Origin: Bacillales bacterium UBA4682
GTDB taxonomy: Bacteria > Bacillota_I > Bacilli_A > RFN20 > CAG-288
Direction of reading: 5' to 3'
DNA length: 64,000 bases
Assembly (NCBI GenBank): GCA_002404995.1
Contig: DHKY01000004.1
Location: 122,821-186,820, forward strand
Shown here: positions 5,866 to 60,277 of the stretch, in pieces
Position numbering within the stretch: the stretch's first letter is position 1
Layout: each line of letters begins with the position of its first letter
Notes under the pieces: model-generated
Seen by the model: only the letters and a program-made list of their open reading frames with translations
What the model was told of the DNA's origin: nothing
The model's database searches: none
Translations under genes and position numbers: made by a program

Positions 5866-6415
5866 AAAGCTCTCAGCAAAATCCAGTATTATACCTATAG
5901 AGTTAAATATAGCGGTTTTTATGAGTCTAATCTTTCTTTCACAGATAAAGATTTCTTCGATTTAAAGGATTACAATGATTCTGTTTCCTATTTACAGAAC
6001 ATATATTCTTCATCCTATCTTTCAGAAGAAAACATTTCGGAATTCTTTTGCTGGACAGGAAAAATCAGAAATTGCAGAAAGCTGATAATCCTGAAGGGTT
6101 TAAGTACTGAGTCGCTGATTTAAACTTTATAATCACACAATCAACAATCTATAAAACAAAAGATTACAACAGCGATAGGATGTCTGGATACCAAGTGAAA
6201 TATTCTGACAATACATGGGTAGAGTTAAAATACGAATTCAGCAAGCGAAAAGAGGTTAATGGTTATCTATTCTACCTATATGGTCTCCTCGCCAATTCTT
6301 ATTAGCAATTAAAAGAAAATGAAGGAATCATTGGATTAAAGCCGACCAAAGACAGGCCGAATTCGCAGTCGAAACTCTCTTCAGACTGAAGCGACTGTTT
6401 TCCCAGCATTCTGTG

Positions 6416-11225: not shown

Positions 11226-13205
11226 CTAGACAATCAGGAAATCTTTTGACCTATCTAAGCTATCGATATATTCTTTGTTTTCCTTGTCCTCCCTATGGGA
11301 AAGAATCTCCTTCGCATCCTCTTTGGCAAAAGAAAACCTCTTCTGGTCTTCAACAAAATTGCAGACCCTCAGTTCGCTTCTTCCAGACTGTCCGCTCCCG
11401 GAATAAGAACCAGTTCCACGCTGCTTGAGATCAAACTGGGAAATCTCTAGTCCATCCGAACAAGTCGTAAGAAAATCGAGCTTTTCCTTTGCCTCCTTAT
11501 TTTCACCATCGTAGACAAGTACACAGAGTCCGAACTTGCCGTCTCTTCCGACACGTCCTCTCAGCTGATGAAGAGAAGAAAGCCCGAAATAATTCGCATC
11601 ATAGACAACCAATAGGCCGGCAGAAGTCACATCGATGCCGACTTCAATCACAGTAGTGGAAACCAGAATTGGTTTCTTACCGCTTGCAAAAGCACAAATA
11701 ATCTCATTCTGACTTTCTTTCTTGATTCGTCCATGAAGAAGCTGGACCTTATCCACTCCAAAACGTTCTGTCCTTTCCTTGTAGACACTTTCCGCTGACG
11801 AAGTCTGTTTCTCGCCTTGGTCGATTTTTGGGCAGACAACAAAAACCTGTCGTTTGGCATCGATTGCCTTCTGAATCGAGGAAAAGACGATTGGATCATG
11901 GGAACTGACCGAAATGGTCTTCACGTTCCGCTTGCCATGCGGGAACTGATTCAAAGTCGAAACATCCAAATCCGCATTGATAATCTGGGACAAAGTTCTC
12001 GGAATCGGAGTGGCAGACCTCCTAAGCCTGTCATTGCTTTCGTCCTTTGCAAGAAGCTCTTCCCGCTGTTTGACACCGAACAGCTGTTGTTCATCAATAA
12101 TCGATAAACCCAAAAAGGCAAAAGAGACTTTTTCCGAAAGGACGCTGTTTGTCGATATCAGAAGATCAATCGTTCCCTTTTCGAGTCCTTCCAGGATTTT
12201 CTTCTTTTCCTTCGTCAACGATCCGCCGGAAAGGAAAGCAATCTTCCTTCCATAGGGAGAGAGGACATCCATGGCTTTTTCATAATGCTGCTTGCTTAAT
12301 TCAAATGTCGGTGCCATTAAAACACCCTGCTTCTTTCTAAGGAAATTGGCATAGAGTGCAGCAAAAGCGACTATCGTCTTTCCCGTCCCGACATCGCCTT
12401 GGAGAAGACGATACCTGATTTTTTCCTTTTCCCTATCGAGCACAATGTCATGAATAGCACTGATCTGGTCATGAGTCAGCTTATAAGGAAGAGAAGAGAC
12501 AAACTGGTTGATTTTCTCATGCGGTATTTTCAATCCATTTGTCTTCTTAATCTGATCTGCTCTTTTTTTCCTCCTTAAGGCTTTCACCGAATACTCAAGG
12601 GCTTCCTCATATTTAAATACGCGCAGGCCTGCTTTCAGCTCCTTGTCGGTCTTTGGAAGATGAACATAACGATAAGCATCATACTCAGGAACAAAGCGGT
12701 ATTTCCGTACAAGATAGGAAGGAATCTTCGACTGCCTGATCTTTCCCATCGGATAAGACAATACCTTCTTAAGATAAGAAGTAAAATACGAATTCGATAC
12801 TTTTCTCGGAAGAGCATAAATCGGACGGATTCCGGTCAGAACATAATAATTGTCCAAATCAAAAATATTCGAGGCCCTATAGACCTTTCTTGCCTCCGAA
12901 TAAGTTCCGATTACCCTGAGTTCTTTCCCAGAAGACAGCATTCCTAGATAAAAGGGCTGCTGGTAAAGAAGGAAATCAACATGATTTCCACCCCTGGTAT
13001 CCACCTTAAAACGAATCAAAGAAGCGCCTCTGGTATTGATGTTCTTCAGATGAGAAATACTCCCCTTGACAATGATTTTATCCCCTGCTTTAGGCTCTGC
13101 TGGAATCGGGGTTGGCACTAAGGATTCATATCGGGAAGGAAAGTGGCGGAGAATATCTTCGCTGTCTTTGGCATTCAAAAGGAAGAAAAGCTCGTTTTGA
13201 TTCAT
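11226..13205 (-). CDS. recG: ATP-dependent DNA helicase RecG
   Basis: 659 aa with wedge domain, LLQGDVGTGKT, DEQQLFGV, LHGRIKKESQ, RGRVGRDG. Confidence 0.93.
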   Translation of the reverse strand: MNQNELFFLLNAKDSEDILRHFPSRYESLVPTPIPAEPKAGDKIIVKGSISHLKNINTRGASLIRFKVDTRGGNHVDFLLYQQPFYLGMLSSGKELRVIGTYSEARKVYRASNIFDLDNYYVLTGIRPIYALPRKVSNSYFTSYLKKVLSYPMGKIRQSKIPSYLVRKYRFVPEYDAYRYVHLPKTDKELKAGLRVFKYEEALEYSVKALRRKKRADQIKKTNGLKIPHEKINQFVSSLPYKLTHDQISAIHDIVLDREKEKIRYRLLQGDVGTGKTIVAFAALYANFLRKKQGVLMAPTFELSKQHYEKAMDVLSPYGRKIAFLSGGSLTKEKKKILEGLEKGTIDLLISTNSVLSEKVSFAFLGLSIIDEQQLFGVKQREELLAKDESNDRLRRSATPIPRTLSQIINADLDVSTLNQFPHGKRNVKTISVSSHDPIVFSSIQKAIDAKRQVFVVCPKIDQGEKQTSSAESVYKERTERFGVDKVQLLHGRIKKESQNEIICAFASGKKPILVSTTVIEVGIDVTSAGLLVVYDANYFGLSSLHQLRGRVGRDGKFGLCVLVYDGENKEAKEKLDFLTTCSDGLEISQFDLKQRGTGSYSGSGQSGRSELRVCNFVEDQKRFSFAKEDAKEILSHREDKENKEYIDSLDRSKDFLIV

Positions 13206-15455: not shown

Positions 15456-15935
15456 TCAAGCAAGAGGGAAAACAAAGACAGTAAGATAGCCAAAAAGCAG
15501 GCCAAGGGATAAAAAGAATGGTGCGATAGAAAGAAGATAATATGTGATATAGTCCGTTTTTTTCTTTCTGTCCTTCCAAAAAGATTCGAATTGTTCCCTA
15601 TAGTATTTCTTTAATTGCCGTTTCTTGCAGAAAAAGAAATAAAAAAGAAACAAAGCGAATCCAACCAAAAAACATGGAAAAAGAAACAGAGATGCAATGT
15701 GTTGATCCTTGTGATTTTGAGGAACGTTCAGACTAGCAATAATGCTTTCTATCAAAAAAAGGAAAAAAATAAGACTAGGCAATACAGGATTCGGCTTAGT
15801 CCTTTTCTCAAAAGAAGGCTTATCATCAAGGCGAAACATCTTTAATAAACGGATTTCATGAACAATGAATAAGACAAAGCAAAAAAGAGAAATTCCAATC
15901 AATATATAAAAAATAATTCCGAGTATTTCGTTCAT
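15456..15935 (-). CDS. Paralog 1 of a small multi-TM membrane protein family (putative immunity-like)
   Basis: 159 aa; N-terminal TM, KPSFEKRTKP motif, C-terminal TM ending ...FPLA. Paralogous to the ORFs at 15956-16435 and 16607-17077. Confidence 0.7.
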   Translation of the reverse strand: MNEILGIIFYILIGISLFCFVLFIVHEIRLLKMFRLDDKPSFEKRTKPNPVLPSLIFFLFLIESIIASLNVPQNHKDQHIASLFLFPCFLVGFALFLFYFFFCKKRQLKKYYREQFESFWKDRKKKTDYITYYLLSIAPFFLSLGLLFGYLTVFVFPLA

Positions 15936-15955
15936 TTCCTATTCCTTCCGATATA

Positions 15956-16435
15956 TTAAGCAAGAGGAATACAAAAACCAACTAGCCTGCCAAGGGCCAT
16001 GCCACCAGTTACAAAAGGTATTTCAAAGAACTTCCCACATCGTTCTCTCGGCGGAGATTCAGCATCTCTTTTCCTGTCTTCCGGATAGGTCTTCTTTAGC
16101 CACTTCTTCTTGAAAAAAGGAAAATAGACAAAGGCAGCCACAATTCCTAAAACAAGACCAATCAACCTGCCGTGAAGACATCCCTTTTCGTTCCAGAAAA
16201 CGTTCCTGTCTTTTAGCTGCCTATCTGTTGAAAAAACGCCAATAAGTTCAGCAACACTAAAAAGAATTCCAATAATAGAAGTCCATCCCGGCACATTCAG
16301 CCTTTTCTTGAATTCAGGCCTCTCTTCTCCGTTTTTGAATTTCTTGTAAAAAGAAAACTCGTTTTGAAGAAAAAACGCAAACGTCACAGAAGAGCAAATA
16401 ATGAAGATAATCAGCAATATTTCAATGGCTGGCAT
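15956..16435 (-). CDS. Paralog 2 of the small multi-TM membrane protein family
   Basis: 159 aa; RPEFKKRLNVPG, YPEDRKRD, ends ...CIPLA. Confidence 0.7.
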   Translation of the reverse strand: MPAIEILLIIFIICSSVTFAFFLQNEFSFYKKFKNGEERPEFKKRLNVPGWTSIIGILFSVAELIGVFSTDRQLKDRNVFWNEKGCLHGRLIGLVLGIVAAFVYFPFFKKKWLKKTYPEDRKRDAESPPRERCGKFFEIPFVTGGMALGRLVGFCIPLA

Positions 16436-16446
16436 ATGTCATAGAA

Positions 16447-16605
16447 TTCCTTATTGAACCACAGTATAGGTCAAATCGTAGCTGCTCCACCATAGTCCGA
16501 TTTTATCCTTAGAACAGTAGTGATACACAGCCTAAACCAATTCTTTTAACAAGAAGTTGTATAAAGTGTACCACTATCATTTTAATGATAATAATATTGT
16601 CACGT
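16447..16605 (-). pseudogene. Frameshifted orphan fragment homologous to the 3' end of the lipoprotein gene at 17090-18082
   Basis: Translations ...IIKMIVVHFIQLLVKRIGLGCVSLL (one frame) then YHYCSKDKIGLWWSSYDLTYTVVQ* (another frame). These match the lipoprotein C-terminus ITLFKYIIGHYLPCLTKGVIRMIGSLLYHYGSKNEIGLWWSNYNLLNYVLD*. DNA identity is visible too (gtagctgctccaccatagtccgattt vs gtagttactccaccataagccgattt). Confidence 0.7.
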
Positions 16606-16606
16606 T

Positions 16607-17077
16607 CTAAGCAAGAGGAATCCAAACACAAATCAATATTCCAAGGACCGCAAAGCCAATAGCGAAAGGGGCCACAAAGCCAAAACCAATGTTCTGTTTG
16701 CTCGATGCATGTCTGTTTTTTTCCATTTCCTCTGGATATAAAGTCTGAAGAGTAGTGTCCTTGAAGCCATAGTAATAAATAATACCGATAACTGCTCCTA
16801 CTGCCCTTCCAACCACTCCTCCAGTTAAGCAAACCCTAAAACGATTAGGTTCTCCCCCTAGAAAACAAACAGCAGCACCACAGAAAGCGGCAATGAAAGC
16901 TAGCAGGAATTCTATCAAAGTGATTATTCCTGCAGGATCTGTTGCCTTTTCGAAAGAAGGTTTCTCTTTGCTATTAACTGTTTTTCTGAAAAAATAAGCT
17001 TCTTCTCCGATAAAACACAAAAAAGACAAGAAAGAAAGAACCAATAAAACAACTGCAGCAATTTTTGCAATAAGCAT
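16607..17077 (-). CDS. Paralog 3 of the small multi-TM membrane protein family
   Basis: 156 aa; KPSFEKATDPAG, YPEEMEKN, ends ...WIPLA. GGAG SD 6 nt upstream. Confidence 0.7.
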   Translation of the reverse strand: MLIAKIAAVVLLVLSFLSFLCFIGEEAYFFRKTVNSKEKPSFEKATDPAGIITLIEFLLAFIAAFCGAAVCFLGGEPNRFRVCLTGGVVGRAVGAVIGIIYYYGFKDTTLQTLYPEEMEKNRHASSKQNIGFGFVAPFAIGFAVLGILICVWIPLA

Positions 17078-17089
17078 ACTATTCTCCTT

Positions 17090-18082
17090 TTAATCAAGCA
17101 CATAATTCAGGAGATTGTAGTTACTCCACCATAAGCCGATTTCATTTTTTGAACCATAATGGTATAACAAACTTCCAATCATCCTTATCACACCTTTTGT
17201 AAGGCATGGCAAATAATGTCCGATAATATATTTGAACAAGGTAATAATCCTTCCAACTACGGAAGTGCAATTCCAAGCCGACACAAAAGTATAAATAATA
17301 TCCGCCAGATCTTCCAACTTATCCATCAATTCTTGACTAAAATAAGTTGATATTTCCCCTAGAGAATCATCAGCAACAGCAATCAAGTCTGAAAAGAAGT
17401 CTGACTTACTAGAACGAAACAAATCACGAATATCCTTTAGCATACCGAAATTAACGAGACACCCCATGAATCCTAAAAATGTAGTAAAAGGATAATTAGC
17501 AGTAAACGAGACTTGGAACCATCCGTATTTCACATCAGACCAAGGCCAAATATTAGGTGAAAAGATATCCTGAGTTGTGATTCCCGATGAATAAGGCTGA
17601 AAGAAACCATTTTGGTCAATAATGCCATATTCCTGCTCTGTAAGTTCGTTCATTAAAGCCCTGTTATCTGAAACATATTTAAGTTTTCTGTAATTTAACT
17701 TATATTCTTCATTATCATCTTGATAAGAAACTCCGTATTGTTCTTCATAATCATCAGGACATAATTTTTCATCGTTTACTGGCCTTTCCTCGTAAACTGA
17801 ATTATCAAGCTCAATATGGCTACTATCAAATCCGACAAATTGGCTAATCGTATCAATGTCATCCTCACTCAGCTGATTGTTCATTTCTTCATGGTCTATT
17901 CCCAAAACAGCATTCTCATCCAGCTTTGGATCAAGCTGTGAGACTTCTATATCAAATTTTTCCTGATTTTCATCCGTTCCAGAAGAATCGGAGGTGTCAG
18001 TAGCACTATAAGGAGAAGGAGTAAAAGAGCACAGAAGAAGAGAAGCAAGTGGAGCCAGAATCAAGCGAAATAGTTTTTTCAT
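17090..18082 (-). CDS. Secreted (lipo)protein: acidic N-terminal region plus hydrophobic C-terminal domain (toxin-like)
   Basis: True start MKKLFRLILAPLASLLLCSF (signal peptide with a candidate lipobox Cys) at 18082 with GGAGG SD. D/E/S-rich spacer. The C-terminus ...GFMGCLVNFGML...IGLWWSNYNLLNYVLD is duplicated as an orphan fragment downstream. Confidence 0.6.
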   Translation of the reverse strand: MKKLFRLILAPLASLLLCSFTPSPYSATDTSDSSGTDENQEKFDIEVSQLDPKLDENAVLGIDHEEMNNQLSEDDIDTISQFVGFDSSHIELDNSVYEERPVNDEKLCPDDYEEQYGVSYQDDNEEYKLNYRKLKYVSDNRALMNELTEQEYGIIDQNGFFQPYSSGITTQDIFSPNIWPWSDVKYGWFQVSFTANYPFTTFLGFMGCLVNFGMLKDIRDLFRSSKSDFFSDLIAVADDSLGEISTYFSQELMDKLEDLADIIYTFVSAWNCTSVVGRIITLFKYIIGHYLPCLTKGVIRMIGSLLYHYGSKNEIGLWWSNYNLLNYVLD

Positions 18083-18437
18083 ACAACCTCCATTAAAAAA
18101 CAACCAGGATTCTAAAACAGATTTTAAGCCACAGCAACAAAACCTTTTTTCATGAAAAAACAAAAAGTTGAAGTAAAGGAATGAAAAGAATATAATCCTC
18201 AAATCAAAGAAACTAGAAGCAAAAAGATATAGGATTCTTTATAAGCCTCCGTATTTTGTCACCTAATCAACCGAATTTTATGACCCTTGCATTTGTTTCG
18301 AGGTGCAAACGCTTATTTCATGTTTTAAAATCCTCTGAAAGGTGCAATAAAATAAAAACAAAAGATAACCAAAGAAGAAAGCCATTAACATGAAACCGTT
18401 TTCTAAGATACAAAAAGAGAGCGTTTCCGCTCCCTTG

Positions 18438-20673: not shown

Positions 20674-22215
20674 CTATTCTAATTCAATCGTTGACGGAGG
20701 TTTGGAAGTGAAATCGTAGAGGACACGGTTCACACCATGCACTTCATTCACAATGCGGTCGACAACTGTCTGAAGCAGGTCATAAGGAAGCGGATAGGGT
20801 TTTGCAGTCCTAAAATCATCCGTTTGGACCGCACGCAGGCAGATTGCATAATCATAAGTCCGACCATCTCCCCTGACGCCGACAGAACGCCTATTCGTTA
20901 AGGCAGCAAAATACTGGGAGATTTTCTTATCCAGTCCTGCTTTCTTGATTTCCTCACGATAGATCAGGTCGGCATCCTGGACAATCTTGACTTTATCCGG
21001 AGTGACTTCGCCGATGACACGGATTCCAAGGCCCGGTCCCGGGAAGGGCTGACGATAGACAATGCTCTCCGGAAGTCCGAGAAGAAGCCCGACTTCCCGG
21101 ACTTCATCTTTGAAGAGATTCTTCAACGGCTCGACAAGGCCTTTGAAGGACCTGTTCTTCGGCAGGCCGCCGACGTTATGATGGGATTTGATTTTTGCCG
21201 AGATTCCAAGTCCGGATTCAATACGATCGGGATAGATGGTTCCCTGAGCGAGATATTCGCAATCGGAAAGTTTCTTGGTTTCCTCTTCAAAGACTTCCAA
21301 GAAAGTAGCACCGATGATTTTACGTTTCTTCTCCGGCTCACTGACTCCTTTCAGACGTTCAAAGAAGAGAGCACTTGCATCCACCGGAATAAAGTTCAGA
21401 TCGAATTTTCCTTTTTCCCCGAAGGTCGCTTCAACTTCTTCCGGTTCGTTCTTACGCCTCAGTCCATGGTTGACAAAGACACAATATAGATTCTTTCCGA
21501 TTGCCTTGGAGAGAAGAGCAGCGGTAACCGCAGAATCCACACCACCGGAAAGTCCAAGAATCACCTTCTTATCCTTGACCTGTTCACGGATTTCCTTGAT
21601 GGTCTCATCAATGAAGTTCTCGCTCTTCCAATCAGGAACGCAGTGGCAGATCTGATAGACAAAGTTCTCGATGACTTTCTGTCCCTCGACAGAATGCGTG
21701 ACTTCCGGATGGAACTGCGTAGCATAGATATTCAAGGCTTCATTCTCGAAGGATGCATTCGGACAGGTTTTGCTTCTGGAAGTGGAAACGAATCCGTCCG
21801 GAAGCTTCGTGACTTGGTCCGTATGGGACATGAAAACAGAAGTCTGTTCATGAATTCCCTTCAGAAGGAAAGAAGGCTGAGTCAGCTCAATATCCGTTTT
21901 TCCATACTCGCTCTTGATAGCCGGTTCGACTTTTCCGTTAAGCAGATAAGCGATGAGCTGTGCACCGTAGCAGATGCCAAGGACCGGTTTTCCAAGAGAG
22001 AATACTTCTTTGGAGATTTTCGGGGATTCTTCCAAATAAACGGAATTCGGACCTCCGGTGAAAATGATTCCCTTAATAGAAGGATCCTTCAGCTTTTCTA
22101 AATCTATCGTATAGGGAAGAACCTCGGAATAGACATGACACTGGCGGACTCTTCTTGCAATCAGCTGATTGTACTGACCACCGAAATCAATCACGACAAT
22201 CTTGTTTGAAGCCAT
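20674..22215 (-). CDS. guaA: GMP synthase (glutamine-hydrolysing)
   Basis: KIVVIDFGGQYNQLIARRVR, GICYGAQL, LSGGVDSAV, C-terminal dimerisation ...YDFTSKPPSTIELE. Start MASNK at 22215. Confidence 0.97.
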   Translation of the reverse strand: MASNKIVVIDFGGQYNQLIARRVRQCHVYSEVLPYTIDLEKLKDPSIKGIIFTGGPNSVYLEESPKISKEVFSLGKPVLGICYGAQLIAYLLNGKVEPAIKSEYGKTDIELTQPSFLLKGIHEQTSVFMSHTDQVTKLPDGFVSTSRSKTCPNASFENEALNIYATQFHPEVTHSVEGQKVIENFVYQICHCVPDWKSENFIDETIKEIREQVKDKKVILGLSGGVDSAVTAALLSKAIGKNLYCVFVNHGLRRKNEPEEVEATFGEKGKFDLNFIPVDASALFFERLKGVSEPEKKRKIIGATFLEVFEEETKKLSDCEYLAQGTIYPDRIESGLGISAKIKSHHNVGGLPKNRSFKGLVEPLKNLFKDEVREVGLLLGLPESIVYRQPFPGPGLGIRVIGEVTPDKVKIVQDADLIYREEIKKAGLDKKISQYFAALTNRRSVGVRGDGRTYDYAICLRAVQTDDFRTAKPYPLPYDLLQTVVDRIVNEVHGVNRVLYDFTSKPPSTIELE

Positions 22216-22330
22216 TGTATTTTTCCTCACTTTTCTATTATACCGAAATAATCAGAAAGAAATTCCTAAATCCGTTTCCAAAAGACAAAAGTTCCCTTTT
22301 TCAGAATTTTCGCTTACAATAAAGAGGCAT

Positions 22331-34353: not shown

Positions 34354-34443
34354 TGGCGGAGTGAGAGAGATTTGAACTCTCGCAGGGATTACTCCCTCTA
34401 AGTCCTTAGCAGGGACTCCTCTTAACCACTTGAGTATCACTCC
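34354..34443 (-). tRNA. tRNA-Ser (anticodon GCU), CCA encoded
   Basis: Minus strand GGAGTGATACTCAAGTGGTTAAGAGGAGTCCCTGCTAAGGACT...long variable arm...GGTTCAAATCTCTCTCACTCCGCCA. Anticodon loop CTGCTAA. Confidence 0.9.
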
Positions 34444-50308: not shown

Positions 50309-51613
50309 TTAAAGTTTCGAGAGATAGACTCCAATCTCACTATAATCATCAACCCAGATCACAATCAAATCAAAAGTAAAGAAATAGCTCGTCAGGTTCC
50401 GGTAAACCGAGGTAGAATACCCGTTTTCCTTCTTCAGGAAAATGAAATTGAATTTCAGGTAGTTCCGTGCAAGTTCCAGAATTCGTTTCCTGTCGGGATC
50501 CGTAAGAGAAATACCGATAAACAGACAGGCATTGAATTTAAAATCATGAAGTTGCTTCGCGATATTCCAGGAATAAGGATTATTGTACAGATAATAGTAA
50601 TCCGATTCCGTGAAGACAAGAGAATCCGTGTACCGCTTTTCTTTGCTTTTCCCGTACGGAAGCAATCCATGCACGTGATAAATATCGACCTTGGCTTCTT
50701 TATCCACAAACGAGTTCTCATCGTAGACAACCGTATAGCGAACATCCTTTTTCTTCAGCAGATATTCGAGATTCGTGTCATAGTTATAGGTAATAACACT
50801 CGTCTGCCGGTGCTTGGAAAGATATTCGTAGCAATGATAAAGAGTCGATTCCTCATTATCAAAAGTGAATTCATTGTCATAAGAATAGAGTTCATTATCA
50901 AGACAACGATAAAAGTCAAATCCGGAAGTCTTCCTGATCCTAGGAGAAGTAAAGAGTTCTTCGCCTACATAATGATGAATCTGGTCCGCGAACCGGGAAT
51001 CCCCTTGATAGAAATCCGTATTCAAGGATTCCATGAGCGAATTCCAGCTTTTTCCACCATAGTCTTCATTGATTCCGGCGCCGATAACAAGATCCACATG
51101 CAGTTTGCAGGTATAAAGCTTCCTAAGCCAGAGAATGAACGTTTCAGCAGAATCGTTCTTACCATGGAAATTATTATCCGAATCAAGGTGATAAAGAATA
51201 TCATCCGTAATCGATTCTTTTTTCTGACGGAAGCGAAGGGAAACCTTCTCTCCCTCCCTATAACCCGTTGCAAAGAACTCACGGCCATCGAAATAGATGT
51301 TCCTGGAAGCCTCTGGTTCATAAAACTCGCCTTCCCGCACAGAAGGAACTTTTACAATATTCCTATTGCCCATGACATCTAGTTTCCTGTAGTTGAAGCG
51401 TGCCCTGGTATCGTAGATATGAATCACGTATTTATGAACATGATCCTTCTTCGAATAGACAATCGCTTTAAAATTGCAGGTCGGGTCAAAGGAAAAACCA
51501 AAGGATCGAAGAATCACATGATCAAAAGGGACATTCTTAAAATAAAACCTGAACAGAGAAAGAAGAAGTCCCTTTTTTCGATAGATATAATAATCCCGTT
51601 CCTGTTTTTCCAT
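50309..51613 (-). CDS. SIR2_2-family (SIR2-like) protein with uncharacterised ~170-aa N-terminal domain
   Basis: Motifs read from the translation: LHVDLVIGAGINEDYGGKSWNSL, SVITYNYDTNLEYLL, DIYHVHGLLPYG, ACLFIGISLTDPDRKRILE. This is the canonical GAG..., TxNYD, HxHG, GxSxxD order of SIR2_2 (PF13289-like). Confidence 0.65.
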   Translation of the reverse strand: MEKQERDYYIYRKKGLLLSLFRFYFKNVPFDHVILRSFGFSFDPTCNFKAIVYSKKDHVHKYVIHIYDTRARFNYRKLDVMGNRNIVKVPSVREGEFYEPEASRNIYFDGREFFATGYREGEKVSLRFRQKKESITDDILYHLDSDNNFHGKNDSAETFILWLRKLYTCKLHVDLVIGAGINEDYGGKSWNSLMESLNTDFYQGDSRFADQIHHYVGEELFTSPRIRKTSGFDFYRCLDNELYSYDNEFTFDNEESTLYHCYEYLSKHRQTSVITYNYDTNLEYLLKKKDVRYTVVYDENSFVDKEAKVDIYHVHGLLPYGKSKEKRYTDSLVFTESDYYYLYNNPYSWNIAKQLHDFKFNACLFIGISLTDPDRKRILELARNYLKFNFIFLKKENGYSTSVYRNLTSYFFTFDLIVIWVDDYSEIGVYLSKL

Positions 51614-51734: not shown

Positions 51735-52925
51735 CTAGTCGATGATCTCAGTGACGGTGCCGGCACCAACGGTGTGGCCGCCTTCACGGATAGAGAACTT
51801 CGTGTTGTTTTCGATAGCGATCGGGTGGATAAGCTCGACGGTTAACTCAACGTTATCGCCAGGCCTGACCATCTGGACATCAGCAGGAAGAGTGACGGTT
51901 CCAGTGACATCGGTGGTACGGAAGTAGAACTGAGGACGATAGTTGTTGGTGAAAGCAGTATGACGTCCGCCTTCTTCTTTCTTTAAGACGTAAACCTTGC
52001 CTTTGAACTTCTTGTGCGGAGTGACAGAGCCCGGTTTGCAGATAACCTGACCACGGACAATCTGATCACGATCGACACCACGGAGTAAAGCACCGATGTT
52101 GTCGCCGGCTTCAGCGAAGTCAAGGATCTTGCGGAACCTCTCAAGAGAGGTAACAACGCATTTACGGGTATCTAAGATACCGACGATTTCGACTTCATCG
52201 TTCGGATGTAACCTACCACGTTCGACACGGCCAGTAGCAACAGTACCACGGCCAGTGATGGTCCTGACATCCTCAACAGCCCTTAAGAACGGTTTTTCGT
52301 TATCACGGACCGGAAGCGGGATGTACTTGTCGCAGGCATTCCTTAATTCCCTGATGGACTCTTCAGCTTTGACATCGCCATTTAAGGCCTGTAAAGCAGA
52401 TCCACGGATGACCGGAAGTTCTTCTCCCGGATATCCATACTTGGAAAGAAGATCACGGACATCCATTTCGACTAAGTCGATTAATTCCGGATCATCAACC
52501 TGATCGCACTTGTTAAGGAAGACAACGATGTAAGGAACACCGACCTGACGGGCAAGTAAAACGTGCTCGCGGGTCTGCGGCCTGACACCATCGGTAGCAG
52601 CGACGACAAGGATAGCACCATCCATCTGAGCAGCACCAGTGATCCTGTTCTTGATGTAGTCGGCGTGGCCAGGGCAGTCAACGTGGGTGTAGTGACGGGA
52701 TTCAGTATCGTATTCGACGTGAGCAGCATTGATGGTGACACCACGGGCTTTCTCTTCCGGAGCAGCATCAATCTGATCATAGTTCAGAGCTTTGGATAAG
52801 CCCTTCTTTGCAAGAACGTGGGTGATAGCGGCGGTTAAAGTGGTCTTGCCGTGGTCGACGTGGCCGATCGTGCCGATGTTAACGTTCGGACGGGAACGGT
52901 CGAACTTCTGTTTAGCTTCAGCCAT
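51735..52925 (-). CDS. tuf: Elongation factor Tu
   Basis: [35 protein letters not shown]... Confidence 0.99.
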
Positions 52926-52999
52926 TATAAATTTCCTCCAAATAGATTCTTAATGACTATACACTTTTTCTACTATATTTTCAAGAATGCAGAGTGCAA

Positions 53000-55129
53000 T
53001 TAACTGCGTTTCTTGATGATTTCGTCCTGGACAGAACGAGGGACCTGCTGATAGTGATCAAAGGTCATTGTATAGATACCACGGCCCTGAGTCCTGGAAC
53101 GAAGGTCGGAGATGTAGCCGAACCTGTTGGCTAACGGAATGAAGGCAGTGATAACCTGGGCATTGGCCTTCTGGACCATGCCATCGACCTGACCACGACG
53201 AGAGGCAACATCGCCCATGACGGTACCGACATAGTCAAGCGGAGTAGTGATATCTGCTTTGACAATCGGTTCAAGGATGACCGGAGAGCACTTCTGTGCT
53301 GCAACACGGAGAGCCTGAGCAGAAGCAAGCTTATAAGCAGCTTCGCTGGAGTCGACATCATGGTAAGAACCATCGAACAGCGTTGCCTTGACATCAATGA
53401 CAGGATAGCCAGCGACCATACCTTTTTCGAAGGCTTCCTTCAAACCATCGAGAGACGGTTTGATGAATTCCTTAGGAATGGCACCACCGGTGATAGCTTC
53501 ATCGATTTCAATACCCTTTCCAGGGTTCGGTTCCATCTTGAAGACAACATGACCATACTGACCATGACCGCCAGACTGCTTGATGTACTTACCTTCGCAG
53601 TTGGCTTCCTGGGTGATGGTCTCACGATAAGCGACCTGAGGTGCACCGACGCGGGTTTCGATTCCGAAGTCGTTCTTCAGACGGGTAACGTTGACATCGA
53701 GCTGAAGTTCGCCGACGCCAGCGATGATACCCTGTCCGGTTTCGCTATCGGTATAGTAATGGAAGGTCGGATCTTCTTCAGTGAACTTAATCAGAGTAGC
53801 GGACCTCTTATCCTGATCAGCACGTTTGACAGGCTCGATAGCCTCGGAGATAACCGGTTCAGCGAACTGGATGGCTTCGAGAGAGACCTGCGGATCGTTC
53901 TCGCCGACAAGAGTATCACCAGTACGGGTGTTAGCGAAGCCGACAGCGGCTGCGATTTCACCGGCACGGGCTTCGGTGATGTTCTCGTGAGAATCAGCGT
54001 TGACTAATTCAAGACGGGAGACACGTTCCTTGGTTCCCTTGCGAACATTGTAGACATAAGAACCGGATTTGACAGTTCCAGAGTAAACACGGAAGAAGCA
54101 AAGGGTTCCAAACTGGTCAGTCGTAAGCTTGAAGGCAAGAGCAACGAACGGTCCGTTCGGATCGGGGTTGAACTTGACTTCTTCGCCGTTCTTGCCGGTA
54201 GCAACCGGGGCAGGAACATCGAGCGGGGACGGGAGATAATCCCGGACTGCATCGAGAACGTACTGAACGCCCTTGTTCTTATAAGCAGAGCCAGGCCTGC
54301 AGGGGAAGATTTCACGGGCAATCGTTTCCTTGCGGATAGCGGCCTTGATTTCTTCAACAGATGGCTCTTCTTCCCTGAGGACTTTTTCCCTGATAGCATC
54401 ATCGAAGTTGGCGAGCTGCTCAATCATGGTCTGATGATAAAGCTTGGCTTTTTCGACATCTTCAGCATATTCAGCAGGAACTTCCTCGAGCGGAACAATC
54501 TTCGGCTGCCTGGATTCAGACTTCTTAGCATCAAGATCCCATAACCAGGCTTTCCTTTCGACCAAGTCGATTAAGCCGAGTAAACGGGTTTCGAGTCCAA
54601 CCGGATAAGCGATGGCGACACCATTTGCACCAACACGTTCCTTGACAGAGGCAACAGACCTTTCATAGTCTGCACCAGTGGCATCGAGCTTATTGACGAA
54701 AACAATACGCGGAACATCATACTTATCAGCCTGACGCCAGACGGTTTCCGTCTGCGGTTCAACACCGTTCTTTCCATCGAGGACGCAGACAGCGCCATCG
54801 AGAACACGGAGAGAACGTTCGACTTCAGCGGTAAAGTCGACATGGCCAGGAGTATCAATTAAGTTGATACGATAGCCTTTCCAGATACAGGTCGTAGCAG
54901 CAGAGTAAATCGTGATACCACGTTTCTGTTCCTGTTCATTGAAGTCCATGGCGGAAGCACCATCATGGGTTTCGCCGATTTTATGGGTTTTTCCTGTGAA
55001 GAAGAGAATACGTTCACTCGTCGTAGTCTTACCAGCATCAATATGGGCCCTGATGCCGATGTTACGGACATGGTCGAGGGCGACCGATTCGTATACGGAT
55101 ACCCTCGCCTGATCGTTATCCATTGCCAT
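53000..55129 (-). CDS. fusA: Elongation factor G
   Basis: ...[20 protein letters not shown]..., 709 aa. Confidence 0.98.
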
Positions 55130-55170
55130 TGTGGATGATTTTCCTTTTCTACTGGGCTAGCCCGAACGGG

Positions 55171-55644
55171 TTACCAGCGATAGTGGGCATAAGCCTTGTT
55201 GGCTTCAGCCGTCTTATGCCTATCTTCTTTACGTTTGACTGCACCACCAGTGCCATTTGCAGCATCGATGATTTCAGCGGCTAATTTGTCAGTCCTGGTC
55301 TTTTCAGAACGAAGACGGGCAAAAGTAACTAACCAGCGGAGGCCTAAGGTAACACGACGCTCCGGAGAGACTTCGACCGGAACCTGGTAGTTAGAGGCAC
55401 CGACACGGCGGGCTTTGAGCTCGACTTCAGGCCTGATGTTGCCTAAAGCGATCTCGAAGACATCCCTAGCCGGTTTGCCGGTCTTGGCTTCGACTTTCTT
55501 GAAAGCGCCGTAGAGGATATCCTGGGCAACGCCTTTCTTTCCATCGACCCTGATACGATTGATCAGACGAGTAACTAACTTGCTCTGGTAAATCGGATCC
55601 GGTAAGACATCACGTTTTTCAACAGAACCGTTTTTTCTTGGCAT
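55171..55644 (-). CDS. rpsG: 30S ribosomal protein S7
   Basis: [30 protein letters not shown]... Confidence 0.98.
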
Positions 55645-57376: not shown

Positions 57377-60277
57377 ATGAAAAAGAAGATTAGTTTAATA
57401 AGGTTATCTAGGTTAGGCTTGCTCCTGTCTGGATGCAAGACAAGCACCGATAGTGCAAGTGCTGCTCCTAGTGTCACTCCGAGTGTTGCCCCTAGTGAGA
57501 CCCCGAGCAGTTCAAAGCCTTCTGTCAGTGAAACAACAAGCACCGAGCCGGCAGAAGTCCGTCCCGATTATTATTTAACGGGAAACATCGATCTTGGCAG
57601 CGACAAACAAAAGAAATTCGCCTATGACCAGGCGACGGATACTTATTCTTTGGAGGGGATTTCCTTAAAGAGAGGAGATTCTTTTGCCATCGATTGCACG
57701 AAAGAAGATAAGAACATCGGATTCGATAGTTTATCCTCTGCTGCCGGCTTTGAAAAAGGAAACGGGAACTTCATCAATGTTCTGAACGAAGGAATCTATA
57801 CTCTTTCCATTAAAAGCGGGGGTCTGGAGAGGAACAAGACCGACTCGAACTATAAAGAAGTCAAGCTTGTCTATTCCGATGGCAAGGAAAGCCTTGCTTT
57901 CGGAAAGCAGAGTGATTTTACCTTTGCCTTGAAGAACGTTGCTCTCCGTTATCAGCAGAAGTTCTCTATCCTTCTTGATGGCGATACTCTTGATTACGAT
58001 GACCTTGCGGTCAACGATACCTACTATTCCGCTTTCCGGGCGGCTGACCATAGCATTGAATCCGTGAAAAAAGGATTTTTTGATCTCACCATTGACTTTT
58101 CCAAGGAAAAACCGGTAGTCATCACTTCCGATGATAGGAAAGAACCGAATTCCATTCCTAAAAACGTAAGCGAATACGAAGAGCTCACCGATAGACTCGG
58201 CAAGGCCTTTGCACAGAAGGGAACAAGTTACACCGCTTATTCCGAAGAGAAAGACATTGCCAGCGGAAAGGTAACTGCCTATGATGCCACGGAAACCCTT
58301 GATACCAACCAGCATTATCTGAAGAAGGAAGCCTACACCTTTGATGTCGATCAGACAAAAGAAGGAGCAGTATCGAAGGACAAGGCTAAACAGAACGCAG
58401 CCATTACTCAGGAAGAAGCCATCGATACGGGAAGCAACTTCTATGTCATTTCCGATAAAGATGGAAAAGGAAGCGTAAACAAGACGAATAGCGCAATCAT
58501 CCGTGATGATGTTCCGGAAACCGATCCGGACGCCGATATTGAGGAAAAGTTCAAACGGAAATACATTACTTCCGCAGAAGCAAAAGCCAATGTAGTTGAT
58601 TTCACCGGGGAAGCAAACCATGTCAGCTCAATCTTCGACTATAGGCTCAGTTCTTCCCATATCACAGGCAGTTCTGCTTTCTCCGAAAAAGAAATCCGGA
58701 ACAATCTGAAAATCGAAGGCAGTTATGACAGCGATTTAGGCGATGTCATCAATCTAAAGTTCTCCAACAATGAATTCAATAACGGATATACGCAGACCTA
58801 TGTCAGGAACACTCTGGATATCACAATCGATGAAGAGGGCAATCCGACAAAGGGAACCTACACCTGCAAGAAGTACGAAGGAAGAGATATCATCAGCACC
58901 GACAAAAAGCCAAATCCGGAAAAGAACCTCGATGACTATCTGACTAAAGAGACGACCTATACCTTTACGAGGGCCTTCGGCAGCCGTCAGAATGTCACCG
59001 ACTTCAAGCTGGATCCCACCAAATATCTCATTTCTTCCTTAGACCCGACACCGGATTTGACAATCTCCTGCAACATTTCAGATTTCGGTGTAGACGAATG
59101 TGGATTCATTGTTGACCCTGTTTCTGCCTGTGACTTGTCCAATTTCTTTGTCCGTTCCTTCGATTCCGACTACTTCAAACGCAACGTCGGAGACGGAAAT
59201 ATTTCCGGAAAAGGAAAGATAGGCAAAACAACCGTCACGATTGCAAACTCCTACAACCTCATTGAGAAAGTCGTTGATGTCACTCTTGACTATGAACCCT
59301 ACAAATATGCAAGCCAGCTTGGCGAATTCTATATCATCGATGGTTCCAAGAAAACCGCAGCTTCCAGCTCTACCTTCTACACTGGCGTAACCTATGACTT
59401 AGAAATCCAGCCTAGCCAGGGCTATGATCCAAGAATGGACATCGTCAGCAGCAGTGATGCTGTTACTATTACGGACCTCAGCAGCGATGAAGAAAGGAAG
59501 AATAATGGAAAGGCAGCCTTCAAGCTGACTGTCAATCGTCTTCCGAAGGACGGAGAATCCGTAAAGCTTACTGCCACATCCAAAGCTGACCCGAGCTTCA
59601 AGAAGGAAGTCTCCCTCACCATCAGGGAACCTTGGACAAGGAAGGCAGCTGCCGGGCAGTATTCATTAACGAGTTCCTATGTTTCTAATTATGCCTATGA
59701 CATTGTTCTAAACGATAACGGAACCGGAAGCTTCACTTACAAAGACGTACAGTACAGTTTCACCTTCGATGTCTCCGCAGAGGGAAAAGTTGCGCTGAAG
59801 ACAAGTGACAATGTCACCGAATTCAGCGGAACACTCTCCAAGAAGGCAATCAACAACAAGTATAGTGGCGAAAGCTACACTTTGAACGCATTCAAGGCAG
59901 ACAGCATCAAAGTTTCCGGCAACACAAGCTCCATTGCTTCCTATTCTTCTTATTATCAGACCAGTCCACTATTCAACACCTCCTATAAGATTACGGATGA
60001 GACCGGAAAGACCTATACTTATTCGAAGTTTGAGCTAGAGACTGGATACTGCTACTCTGGAACGATTTACTTCACCGATGGAACAACTACAAGTAAGTTC
60101 AAGTTCAAAGGCTGTGATCCTTCTAGCAGCAGTTACTATAGCAGCAGTGTATCTGCAACAAGGTACTATTCCGATGCAAGTAGCAGCTCCTACACAACCT
60201 ATTCTGGATCTGTCTCCTGCTCTGGCACAACCTACACAATCACCTTCGGAAGCAAAGTCTTCACCTTCGCTCTTTAA
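57377..60277 (+). CDS. Large surface lipoprotein (966 aa), function unknown
   Basis: MKKKISLIRLSRLGLLLSGC lipobox, S/T/P-rich linker, long beta-rich body. Confidence 0.75.
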   Translation: MKKKISLIRLSRLGLLLSGCKTSTDSASAAPSVTPSVAPSETPSSSKPSVSETTSTEPAEVRPDYYLTGNIDLGSDKQKKFAYDQATDTYSLEGISLKRGDSFAIDCTKEDKNIGFDSLSSAAGFEKGNGNFINVLNEGIYTLSIKSGGLERNKTDSNYKEVKLVYSDGKESLAFGKQSDFTFALKNVALRYQQKFSILLDGDTLDYDDLAVNDTYYSAFRAADHSIESVKKGFFDLTIDFSKEKPVVITSDDRKEPNSIPKNVSEYEELTDRLGKAFAQKGTSYTAYSEEKDIASGKVTAYDATETLDTNQHYLKKEAYTFDVDQTKEGAVSKDKAKQNAAITQEEAIDTGSNFYVISDKDGKGSVNKTNSAIIRDDVPETDPDADIEEKFKRKYITSAEAKANVVDFTGEANHVSSIFDYRLSSSHITGSSAFSEKEIRNNLKIEGSYDSDLGDVINLKFSNNEFNNGYTQTYVRNTLDITIDEEGNPTKGTYTCKKYEGRDIISTDKKPNPEKNLDDYLTKETTYTFTRAFGSRQNVTDFKLDPTKYLISSLDPTPDLTISCNISDFGVDECGFIVDPVSACDLSNFFVRSFDSDYFKRNVGDGNISGKGKIGKTTVTIANSYNLIEKVVDVTLDYEPYKYASQLGEFYIIDGSKKTAASSSTFYTGVTYDLEIQPSQGYDPRMDIVSSSDAVTITDLSSDEERKNNGKAAFKLTVNRLPKDGESVKLTATSKADPSFKKEVSLTIREPWTRKAAAGQYSLTSSYVSNYAYDIVLNDNGTGSFTYKDVQYSFTFDVSAEGKVALKTSDNVTEFSGTLSKKAINNKYSGESYTLNAFKADSIKVSGNTSSIASYSSYYQTSPLFNTSYKITDETGKTYTYSKFELETGYCYSGTIYFTDGTTTSKFKFKGCDPSSSSYYSSSVSATRYYSDASSSSYTTYSGSVSCSGTTYTITFGSKVFTFAL

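Follow-up and report, generated by a model that had tools for sequence, protein, structure and literature searches.

Pore-forming colicins (A, E1, Ia, N) are neutralised by small integral-membrane immunity proteins that have three to four transmembrane (TM) segments and are specific to the toxin variant. Polymorphic toxin systems (PTS) have received a general definition (Zhang et al., 2012; PMC3482391), and one of them, S8-PTS of Gram-positive bacteria, comprises an operonic S8 peptidase and an acidic BetaH domain of about 120 amino acids (aa), which forms a seven-stranded sheet round a C-terminal helix and terminates in a dibasic site (Li, Tan and Zhang, 2022; PMC9424270); the main text of that study mentions neither a membrane-active toxin nor a TM immunity protein. 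Arrays of non-identical immunity genes are known for tsaI and esaG (PMC7456083, PMC9484751). Here we consider a locus in a 64,000-nucleotide (nt) stretch of DNA from Bacillales bacterium UBA4682 (contig DHKY01000004.1; the whole stretch is called the window below), where the gene of a large exported protein is followed by the genes of three small four-TM proteins, p1, p2, and p3. On balance, we lean towards reading this locus, from sequence comparison, as encoding a polymorphic toxin of an undescribed family, exported by Sec and probably aimed at membranes, together with membrane proteins that confer immunity.

A preliminary description of the locus, made from the letters of the window, had listed a large secreted protein and three small genes on one strand; all these open reading frames (ORFs) were confirmed, on the minus strand. 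The features of the cassette are as follows.

17090–18082, minus strand: gene of the large exported protein, candidate toxin precursor (ORF, 330 aa plus stop).
16607–17077, minus strand: p1, four-TM protein, candidate cognate immunity protein (ORF, 156 aa).
16451–16531, minus strand: remnant of a second large-protein gene, comprising 26 codons plus stop from its 3′ end (tblastn, shuffle test).
15956–16435, minus strand: p2, four-TM paralog, candidate immunity partner to the second toxin gene, now lost (ORF, 159 aa).
15456–15935, minus strand: p3, four-TM paralog, the most divergent of the three, candidate orphan immunity gene (ORF, 159 aa).
15957–15998, no strand given: conserved block at the 3′ end of p2 (direct repeat; copy at the 3′ end of p1, 16608–16649).

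The start codon of p1 lies 12 nt past the stop of the large gene, the spacer between p1 and p2 comprises 171 nt, and the gap between p2 and p3, 20 nt. The arrangement of the genes, the paralogy among p1–p3, the linkage of the large and small genes, C-terminal polymorphism in one genome, and the dispensability of the locus are direct observations, considered below one after another together with the alternative explanations on which they bear.

A word-indexed search of 5.8 billion proteins yielded one non-self homolog of the large protein (P0002, 52% identity), and when 1.84 billion cluster representatives were searched exhaustively with an HMMER profile, 27 family clusters were retrieved. According to the alignment, the family members, mostly 310–345 aa long, are conserved end to end and share the signal sequence, the acidic region, the (Y/F)VxDNIxLMNxL...GYGxID..G motif, and a helical C-terminal half with the HY(L/V)PGL and (E/V)IG(L/I)WWSxY motifs. 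The first profile search of genome contigs with the large-protein alignment gave no match, and the alignment of 17 sequences proved too diverse to scan for loci. In all ten cassettes with downstream DNA (the window, L001, L014, L015, two in L012, and one each in L013, L020, L021, and L022), the large gene directly precedes genes of one to four multi-TM proteins of at least 155 aa, with a gap of 3–76 nt or a short overlap between the large and small genes. The cassettes occur in at least six unrelated neighbourhoods, namely, GT2/Asp23, TetR-like, PAP2-like, GerA operon, PFK, and TrkAH/GH31. As judged from gene order, the large and four-TM genes form an obligately linked cassette residing in unrelated contexts.

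The polymorphism is seen in three paralogs from L012 and L013 (sample ERZ808294), which are 95–100% identical over the first 153 aa and only 36–42% identical over the remaining 155–167 aa. At the DNA level, these paralogs are 93% identical over 650–680 nt, including about 155 nt upstream, and each is accompanied by its own diverged set of small proteins (24–46% identity). The identity breaks off just past the conserved GxI..DYEF motif, that is, at about residue 161 of the window protein, and this position marks the module boundary. A constant signal and N-terminus combined with a variable C-terminus would suit antigenic variation as well: the large protein might be a variable cell-surface protein, an adhesin or antigen comparable to the variable surface lipoproteins of Mollicutes, with a membrane partner for its anchoring, assembly, or export, so that the C-terminal diversity would come from host or phage pressure, and the 3′ remnant would be a leftover or a recombination donor. 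Several observations agree with this explanation, namely, the Mollicutes-like, gut-associated lineage, the existence of a partial 3′ copy, and the lack of a recognised toxin domain; however, the variable half is hydrophobic and helical, being neither hydrophilic nor repetitive, one anchor would not call for two to four diverged paralogs per cassette, the locus is deleted in most relatives, and the remnant is just 26 codons long and disrupted. Moreover, tandem repeats and invertible promoters were not seen in a repeat scan, and we regard a surface-protein function as rather unlikely.

The large protein has a conserved architecture. Its N-terminus carries a hydrophobic signal (residues 4–22) with Lys residues ahead of it, conserved family-wide according to the alignment and hydropathy; the signal region extends over approximately aa 1–22, and LLLC-SFT is conserved in close members. 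It is followed by an acidic N-domain (approximately aa 25–161, about 140 aa, net charge −30) and a C-terminal part (approximately aa 162–330, about 165–169 aa) of moderately hydrophobic helices, which are the sole hydrophobic helices beyond the signal, as seen from hydropathy. The protein closes with the conserved EIGLWWSNY, given as a beta-hairpin, and its C-terminal end reads LLYHYGSKNEIGLWWSNYNLLNYVLD*. The consensus lipobox of signal peptidase II substrates is L-[ASTVI]-[GAS]-C. The lipobox of the large protein is L-L-L-C, an atypical one with Leu at position −1; moreover, L014 has no Cys at this place, and the signals of distant members have AxA-type sites instead, as seen from the family alignment. 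Due to these three observations, lipid anchoring of the protein, assumed when it was initially named a lipoprotein, appears doubtful.

Structure prediction gave a partial picture. The AF2 model based on a two-sequence alignment was unusable (pLDDT 34), and with 17 sequences the mean confidence was partial (pLDDT 61.5). In the latter model, residues 70–165 (pLDDT 76–90) are predicted to be mostly helical, with a long helix at 125–149 and two small hairpins; hairpin 181–195 has moderate confidence, the terminal hairpin 309–328 has pLDDT of about 60–66, and four long helices at 197–307 are modelled with low confidence (45–50). Comparison of the large and small proteins with Pfam, NCBIfam, PHROGs, and PADLOC produced only noise, the Pfam scan of 17 family members gave no domain match, and the PDB sequence search with the 17-sequence profile yielded nothing under E = 4. 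The fold-library search with the model of the large protein also gave no match, including the colicin pore domain, ColN-RBD, and TipC. Since no known domain was found in sequence or fold libraries, the family is undescribed, in agreement with the initial suggestion that it may be new.

The small proteins p1–p3 had been described as paralogs, and the comparisons bear this out: their pairwise identity is 26–34%, p1 and p2 are linked by tblastn (E 2e-14), and p3 matches a profile from which it was left out (hhalign probability 95.9%, E 5.5e-9). Four hydrophobic segments, all of at least 19 residues, occur in every one of them, and the (K/R)PxF(E/K)K motif and the (I/F)PLA end are common to all three, as initially noticed, whereas the YPE(E/D) motif, ascribed to all of them at that time, is present in p1 and p2 only, with YREQ in p3. 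By these sequence criteria, the paralogy is real but old, and the divergence of p1–p3 is like that within the tsaI and esaG immunity arrays. Similar proteins accompany the large gene elsewhere: p2 shares 37% identity with the small protein encoded in the L001 cassette, homology to p1–p3 also holds for the small proteins placed after the large gene in L014 and L015 (hhalign probability 97.8%, E 1e-12), and the partner in L022 resembles p1–p3 by eye only. The distant-subfamily partners in L012 and L013 are of two alternating types, A and B, with the same size and four-TM layout as p1–p3; their homology to p1–p3 was considered and dropped, given the hhalign probability of only 22–38%.

The fragment between p1 and p2, initially noticed as an orphan copy of the 3′ end of the large gene, reads AVYHYCSKDKIGLWWSSYDLTYTVVQ* and corresponds to the last 26 residues of the large protein. 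The similarity is real, with 68% identity over 19 aa in tblastn (E 3e-4) and 78% identity over 41 nt at the DNA level (score 37 versus 18.6 ± 2.5, maximum 32, in 300 shuffles). The fragment is placed before p2 just as the intact large gene is placed before p1, its stop being 15 nt ahead of the start codon of p2, compared with 12 nt between the end of the intact gene and p1. An in-frame stop and a frameshift lie ahead of it, and hence it is a decayed remnant rather than a usable, standalone cassette. From its sequence and position, we take it to be the stump of a second large-protein gene. The 42-nt blocks at the 3′ ends of p1 (16608–16649) and p2 (15957–15998) are 76% identical, and a shorter version ends p3. 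In L004, a locus in one of the relatives, the junction of the deletion removing the remnant, p2, and p3 (L004 positions 6373–6380) falls in this shared 3′-end block, which suggests that the ends of the paralogs recombine, as reported for the esaG and tipC immunity arrays.

Most Enterosoma-like relatives of the organism carry both of two clean deletions, and the large gene is gone. Compared with the window, L004 lacks 18411–17027, which takes in the large gene together with 17 codons of p1, and 16610–15468, which takes in the remnant, p2, and p3. What is left is a p1-like stump, truncated at the 5′ end, lacking the first TM segment, and variously frameshifted or internally deleted; the frameshift site is a run of seven A (window positions 16716–16722; loci L004 and L006–L011). 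This stump, of which the databases contain hundreds of sequences, is in these relatives the sole trace of the cassette between the glycosyltransferase and Asp23 genes. As the large gene is deleted and the p1 remnant is decaying in most relatives, the cassette is accessory and dispensable, and it decays once the large gene has gone.

The same genomes bear on the idea that p1–p3 are housekeeping membrane anchors of the Asp23/YloU–YloV operon, found beside an exported protein by chance. Indeed, p3 ends 44 nt ahead of an Asp23-family gene, and database entry P0035 fuses a p1-like remnant to Asp23. Still, in L014 and L015, where Asp23 is missing, the large gene precedes genes of homologous small proteins, the small gene next to Asp23 is truncated and frameshifted in most relatives, and the Asp23-family gene has its own strong promoter-like site past the p3 stop (11 out of 12 consensus matches in the pattern scan). 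We thus rejected this explanation as highly improbable, being contradicted by the contexts of L014 and L015 and by the pseudogenised state of the small gene beside Asp23.

In three related cassettes, including that of L001, which is syntenic with the window, the small gene is followed by the gene of an S8 subtilase (about 280 aa), and in L001 it holds the place taken in the window by p3. The coordinates of the S8 genes closing the cassettes are as follows.

L001, 10573–11424: S8 subtilase gene.
L015, 7337–8311: S8 subtilase gene.
L014, 5008–5943: S8 subtilase gene.

These peptidases have their own N-terminal hydrophobic signals with Cys-containing lipobox-like ends, e.g., LLSSC and LTSC; inspection of the translated ORFs by eye shows the catalytic D/H/S motifs DSG, HGS, and SGSS, and the best NCBIfam matches, all below curated cut-offs, are to mycosin, PatA, and QhpE, which are dedicated maturation proteases.

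The logic of SdpC/SdpI of Bacillus likewise combines an exported precursor with a protease that processes it and a polytopic immunity protein in the membrane, and the cassette resembling it might accordingly be a self-directed or developmental lysis or cannibalism module (SdpC/SdpI or holin-like), acting on siblings or the producer under stress or during sporulation, with the membrane proteins serving as immunity proteins or signal transducers. In two samples, probably of one species, the distant-subfamily cassette comes after a GerA-type spore germination operon (L012 4006–7790; L019 712–1125). This neighbourhood would fit a sporulation-related role, but it is confined to one species, the other contexts being unrelated to it; the cassette has no linked regulator, and C-terminal polymorphism matched by diverged small proteins favours discrimination between strains over a fixed developmental signal. 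A cannibalism module is, in our opinion, unlikely.

Further upstream in L012, an integrase and a leucine-rich repeat (LRR) protein are encoded. The integrase gene, 7 kb upstream of the cassette, is compatible with an anti-phage or superinfection-exclusion module that would block adsorption or DNA entry or cause abortive membrane collapse, and such a module could well be accessory, patchy, fast-diversifying, and membrane-located, as this locus is. Against this stand the lack of PADLOC and PHROG matches, the lack of a cassette homolog in viral contigs, phage genomes, and plasmids, and the position of most cassettes away from defence and prophage genes, and we consider an anti-phage role quite improbable. 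The surface-protein, cannibalism, and anti-phage explanations each fit fewer observations than the toxin–immunity reading.

According to the toxin–immunity reading, the large protein would be exported by Sec via its N-terminal signal, to be either lipid-anchored or released, with the acidic N-terminal half (about 140 aa) acting as a carrier or pro-domain. The C-terminal half, with its long moderately hydrophobic helices and the Trp/Tyr-rich beta-hairpin at the end, would be the active module, inserting from outside into the cytoplasmic membrane of neighbours and dissipating the membrane potential or forming a pore. In the related cassettes, the S8 subtilase probably cuts the precursor, releasing or activating the C-terminal module, by analogy with S8-PTS. 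The p1 protein would shield the producer within its own membrane, whereas p2 and p3 may be diverged immunity genes retained against other toxin variants, p2 being the partner of the lost second toxin gene. The pairing of four-TM small proteins with a hydrophobic C-terminal half in the large protein supports this membrane logic.

Taken together, the cassette linkage, the polymorphism in L012 and L013, the diverged arrays, and the decay in relatives argue in part for the toxin–immunity interpretation first put forward in the preliminary description, the argument being one of comparative genomics and stronger than the one available at that time. Several observations weigh against it. The variable C-terminal tips anticipated in other genomes were found in L012 and L013 (36–42% identity), and hence in one genome only, but not between the window protein and P0002, whose halves are equally diverged (52% identity for the N-terminus and 54% for the C-terminus); moreover, all C-terminal halves in the family are homologous, with no swap for unrelated domains. 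The small proteins of the distant subfamily in L012 and L013 lack demonstrable homology to p1–p3. No toxin, pore-forming, or immunity domain was recognised by sequence or fold libraries, and the AF2 model is weakest over the presumed toxic helices (pLDDT 45–50 at residues 210–300). Finally, an S8 homolog was not found in the 64-kb window (tblastn, E ≤ 1).

The genetic code affects all translations considered here. Long ORFs in the window and in close relatives use AGG at 22–29 and ATG at about 8 per 1000 codons, compared with 2–7 for AGG and 19–29 for ATG in the loci with the standard code. Five out of six AGG codons of guaA (20674–22230, minus strand) fall inside the alignment with the Escherichia coli GMP synthase, three of them on Met, one of these in the VGVMGDG motif, and the other two on Leu and Val; ATG occurs in this gene only twice in 518 codons. 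The use of AGG as Met is seen window-wide, e.g., in guaA and recG (11226–13205, minus strand), and the same p1 codon is alternately ATG or AGG among close relatives. By codon usage and alignments, AGG codes for Met in the organism of the window, matching the reassignment documented for Candidatus Enterosoma, which belongs to the CAG-288 family (PMC13092985). Hence, database table-11 translations of this lineage are wrong at every AGG. The AGG-coded residues (large protein, four; p1, two; p2, seven; p3, two) were given as Arg in the preliminary description, which missed this code, and are Met; several of them sit within hydrophobic helices, e.g., GGVVG-M-AVGAVIG in p1. Thus, database translations contain two to seven Arg/Met errors per gene of the cassette, several in membrane helices, and synthetic constructs of these genes need AGG recoded to ATG.

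The same codons bear on the age of the locus. When the large protein is aligned with its standard-code homologs, three out of the four AGG codons coincide with columns that are Met or hydrophobic, one of these columns being otherwise Met-conserved, and the remaining codon coincides with a conserved Arg column. The codons on Met and hydrophobic columns indicate that the locus has long evolved in the AGG=Met lineage, and therefore its low GC content (35–39% compared with approximately 44–46% in the flanks) need not signal recent import. Recent horizontal import as the explanation of low GC was rejected on these grounds.

Upstream of the cassette are the genes of a family-2 glycosyltransferase and a PHP-domain protein and guaA; the Asp23-family gene, starting 44 nt past p3, is followed by yloV and recG. 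The features identified in the upstream region are listed below; the promoter and terminator pattern matches in this region are no more numerous than in shuffled sequence.

18083–18437, minus strand: non-coding region 5′ of the cassette (sequence and pattern scan).
18087–18091, minus strand: GGAGG ribosome-binding site of the large gene, 5 nt ahead of the ATG.
18234–18262, minus strand: promoter-like site 5′ of the large gene (consensus match only).
18415–18436, minus strand: terminator-like hairpin of the preceding glycosyltransferase gene (consensus match only).

Elsewhere in the 64-kb window, the Rfam scan found no RNA family, and the only tRNA is Ser-GCU (34354–34443). The GC peak of about 50% at 51735–55644 (minus strand) is the str operon (rpsG, fusA, tuf), and thus rRNA as the source of the peak at 52–56 kb was ruled out. 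Adjoining tuf is a 434-aa ORF with a SIR2_2 domain (50309–51613, minus strand), which may encode a defence-type SIR2 protein, and a 966-aa ORF at 57377–60277 (plus strand) has no Pfam match at E ≤ 1e-5.

If the toxin–immunity reading is correct, the tools of bacterial competition would be enriched by a toxin module and a family of membrane immunity proteins, both of them new, the S8-peptidase-associated toxin systems would be widened from the nuclease type to membrane-targeting ones, and the uncultured genome-reduced gut Bacilli (Enterosoma and relatives) would gain their first candidate competition factor. Tentatively, and holding this to be possible rather than probable, we may go further and see here a new class of Sec-exported antibacterial proteins, in which a previously unseen membrane-inserting C-terminal fold would be released by a lipoprotein-type S8 peptidase and neutralised by four-TM proteins in a variant-specific manner; this would be the first membrane-targeting branch of S8-associated systems, found in genome-reduced gut Bacilli, including a lineage with AGG=Met. 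Since systems of this kind are well known, the finding would be an incremental addition.

Compared with the general definition of polymorphic toxin systems (Zhang et al., 2012; PMC3482391), the large protein has an N-terminal secretion module, the candidate immunity gene lies directly downstream in ten out of ten cassettes, a conserved N-terminal and a variable C-terminal part are seen in L012 and L013 and not between the window and P0002, and the extra small genes p2 and p3 are present, with the disrupted 26-codon remnant as the sole toxin fragment. The arrangement had initially been seen as a hallmark of contact-dependent inhibition (CDI; CdiBAI), Rhs/WapA, and LXG systems, and the likeness to them concerns the layout only, that is, the toxin gene, the immunity gene, extra immunity genes, and the leftover 3′ fragment. 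The large protein comprises only 330 aa, TPS/FHA repeats, VENN, YD repeats, and LXG are absent (Pfam, E ≤ 1), and no genes of CdiB or of type VII secretion were noticed in the ORFs flanking the cassette. As none of the delivery domains of these systems are present, the cassette is not CDI, Rhs, or LXG.

With pore-forming colicins, the proposed toxin would share a carrier or receptor part combined with a C-terminal helical membrane-inserting domain. At the same time, the large protein resembles the colicin pore domain neither in sequence nor in fold, its hosts are of the Gram-positive type, the export would be via Sec rather than by lysis-protein release, and the immunity genes are on the toxin strand.

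A closer counterpart is TspA/TsaI of Staphylococcus aureus (PMC7456083, PMC9484751), where the C-terminal domain of the toxin depolarises membranes from outside, as we propose for the large protein, a polytopic membrane immunity protein is encoded directly downstream, non-identical immunity paralogs occur in a string, and the toxin is polymorphic among strains. The differences are in delivery and in the immunity proteins: TspA is exported by type VII secretion and has an LXG-like N-terminus, whereas the large protein has a Sec signal and LXG/WXG genes are not nearby, and TsaI belongs to DUF443 with five predicted TM segments, whereas p1–p3 have four and no Pfam match.

The closest described system, overlooked in the preliminary description, is S8-PTS (Li, Tan and Zhang, 2022; PMC9424270). 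As in S8-PTS, the toxin precursor would have a Sec signal peptide and a very acidic N-domain, the immunity gene is directly downstream, there are few loci per genome, each with a distinct toxin–immunity pair, and an operonic signal-bearing S8 peptidase without a prodomain is present in L001, L014, and L015, where it is downstream of the immunity gene, as it sometimes is in S8-PTS. However, the S8 gene seen in three related cassettes is missing from that of the window, and the N-domain, modelled as mostly helical with two small hairpins, appears to differ from BetaH; for these two reasons, the window cassette lies outside S8-PTS as defined. Among the S8-PTS toxins that have been described are nucleases along with further domains acting in the cytoplasm, all countered by soluble immunity proteins, whereas here a hydrophobic C-terminal module is paired with four-TM partners; the hosts of S8-PTS are Bacillales and Actinobacteria, and those of the family studied here, gut RFN20/Enterosoma-like and clostridial-type bacteria. 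Taking all this into account, the locus works like S8-PTS and TspA/TsaI while being a member of neither.

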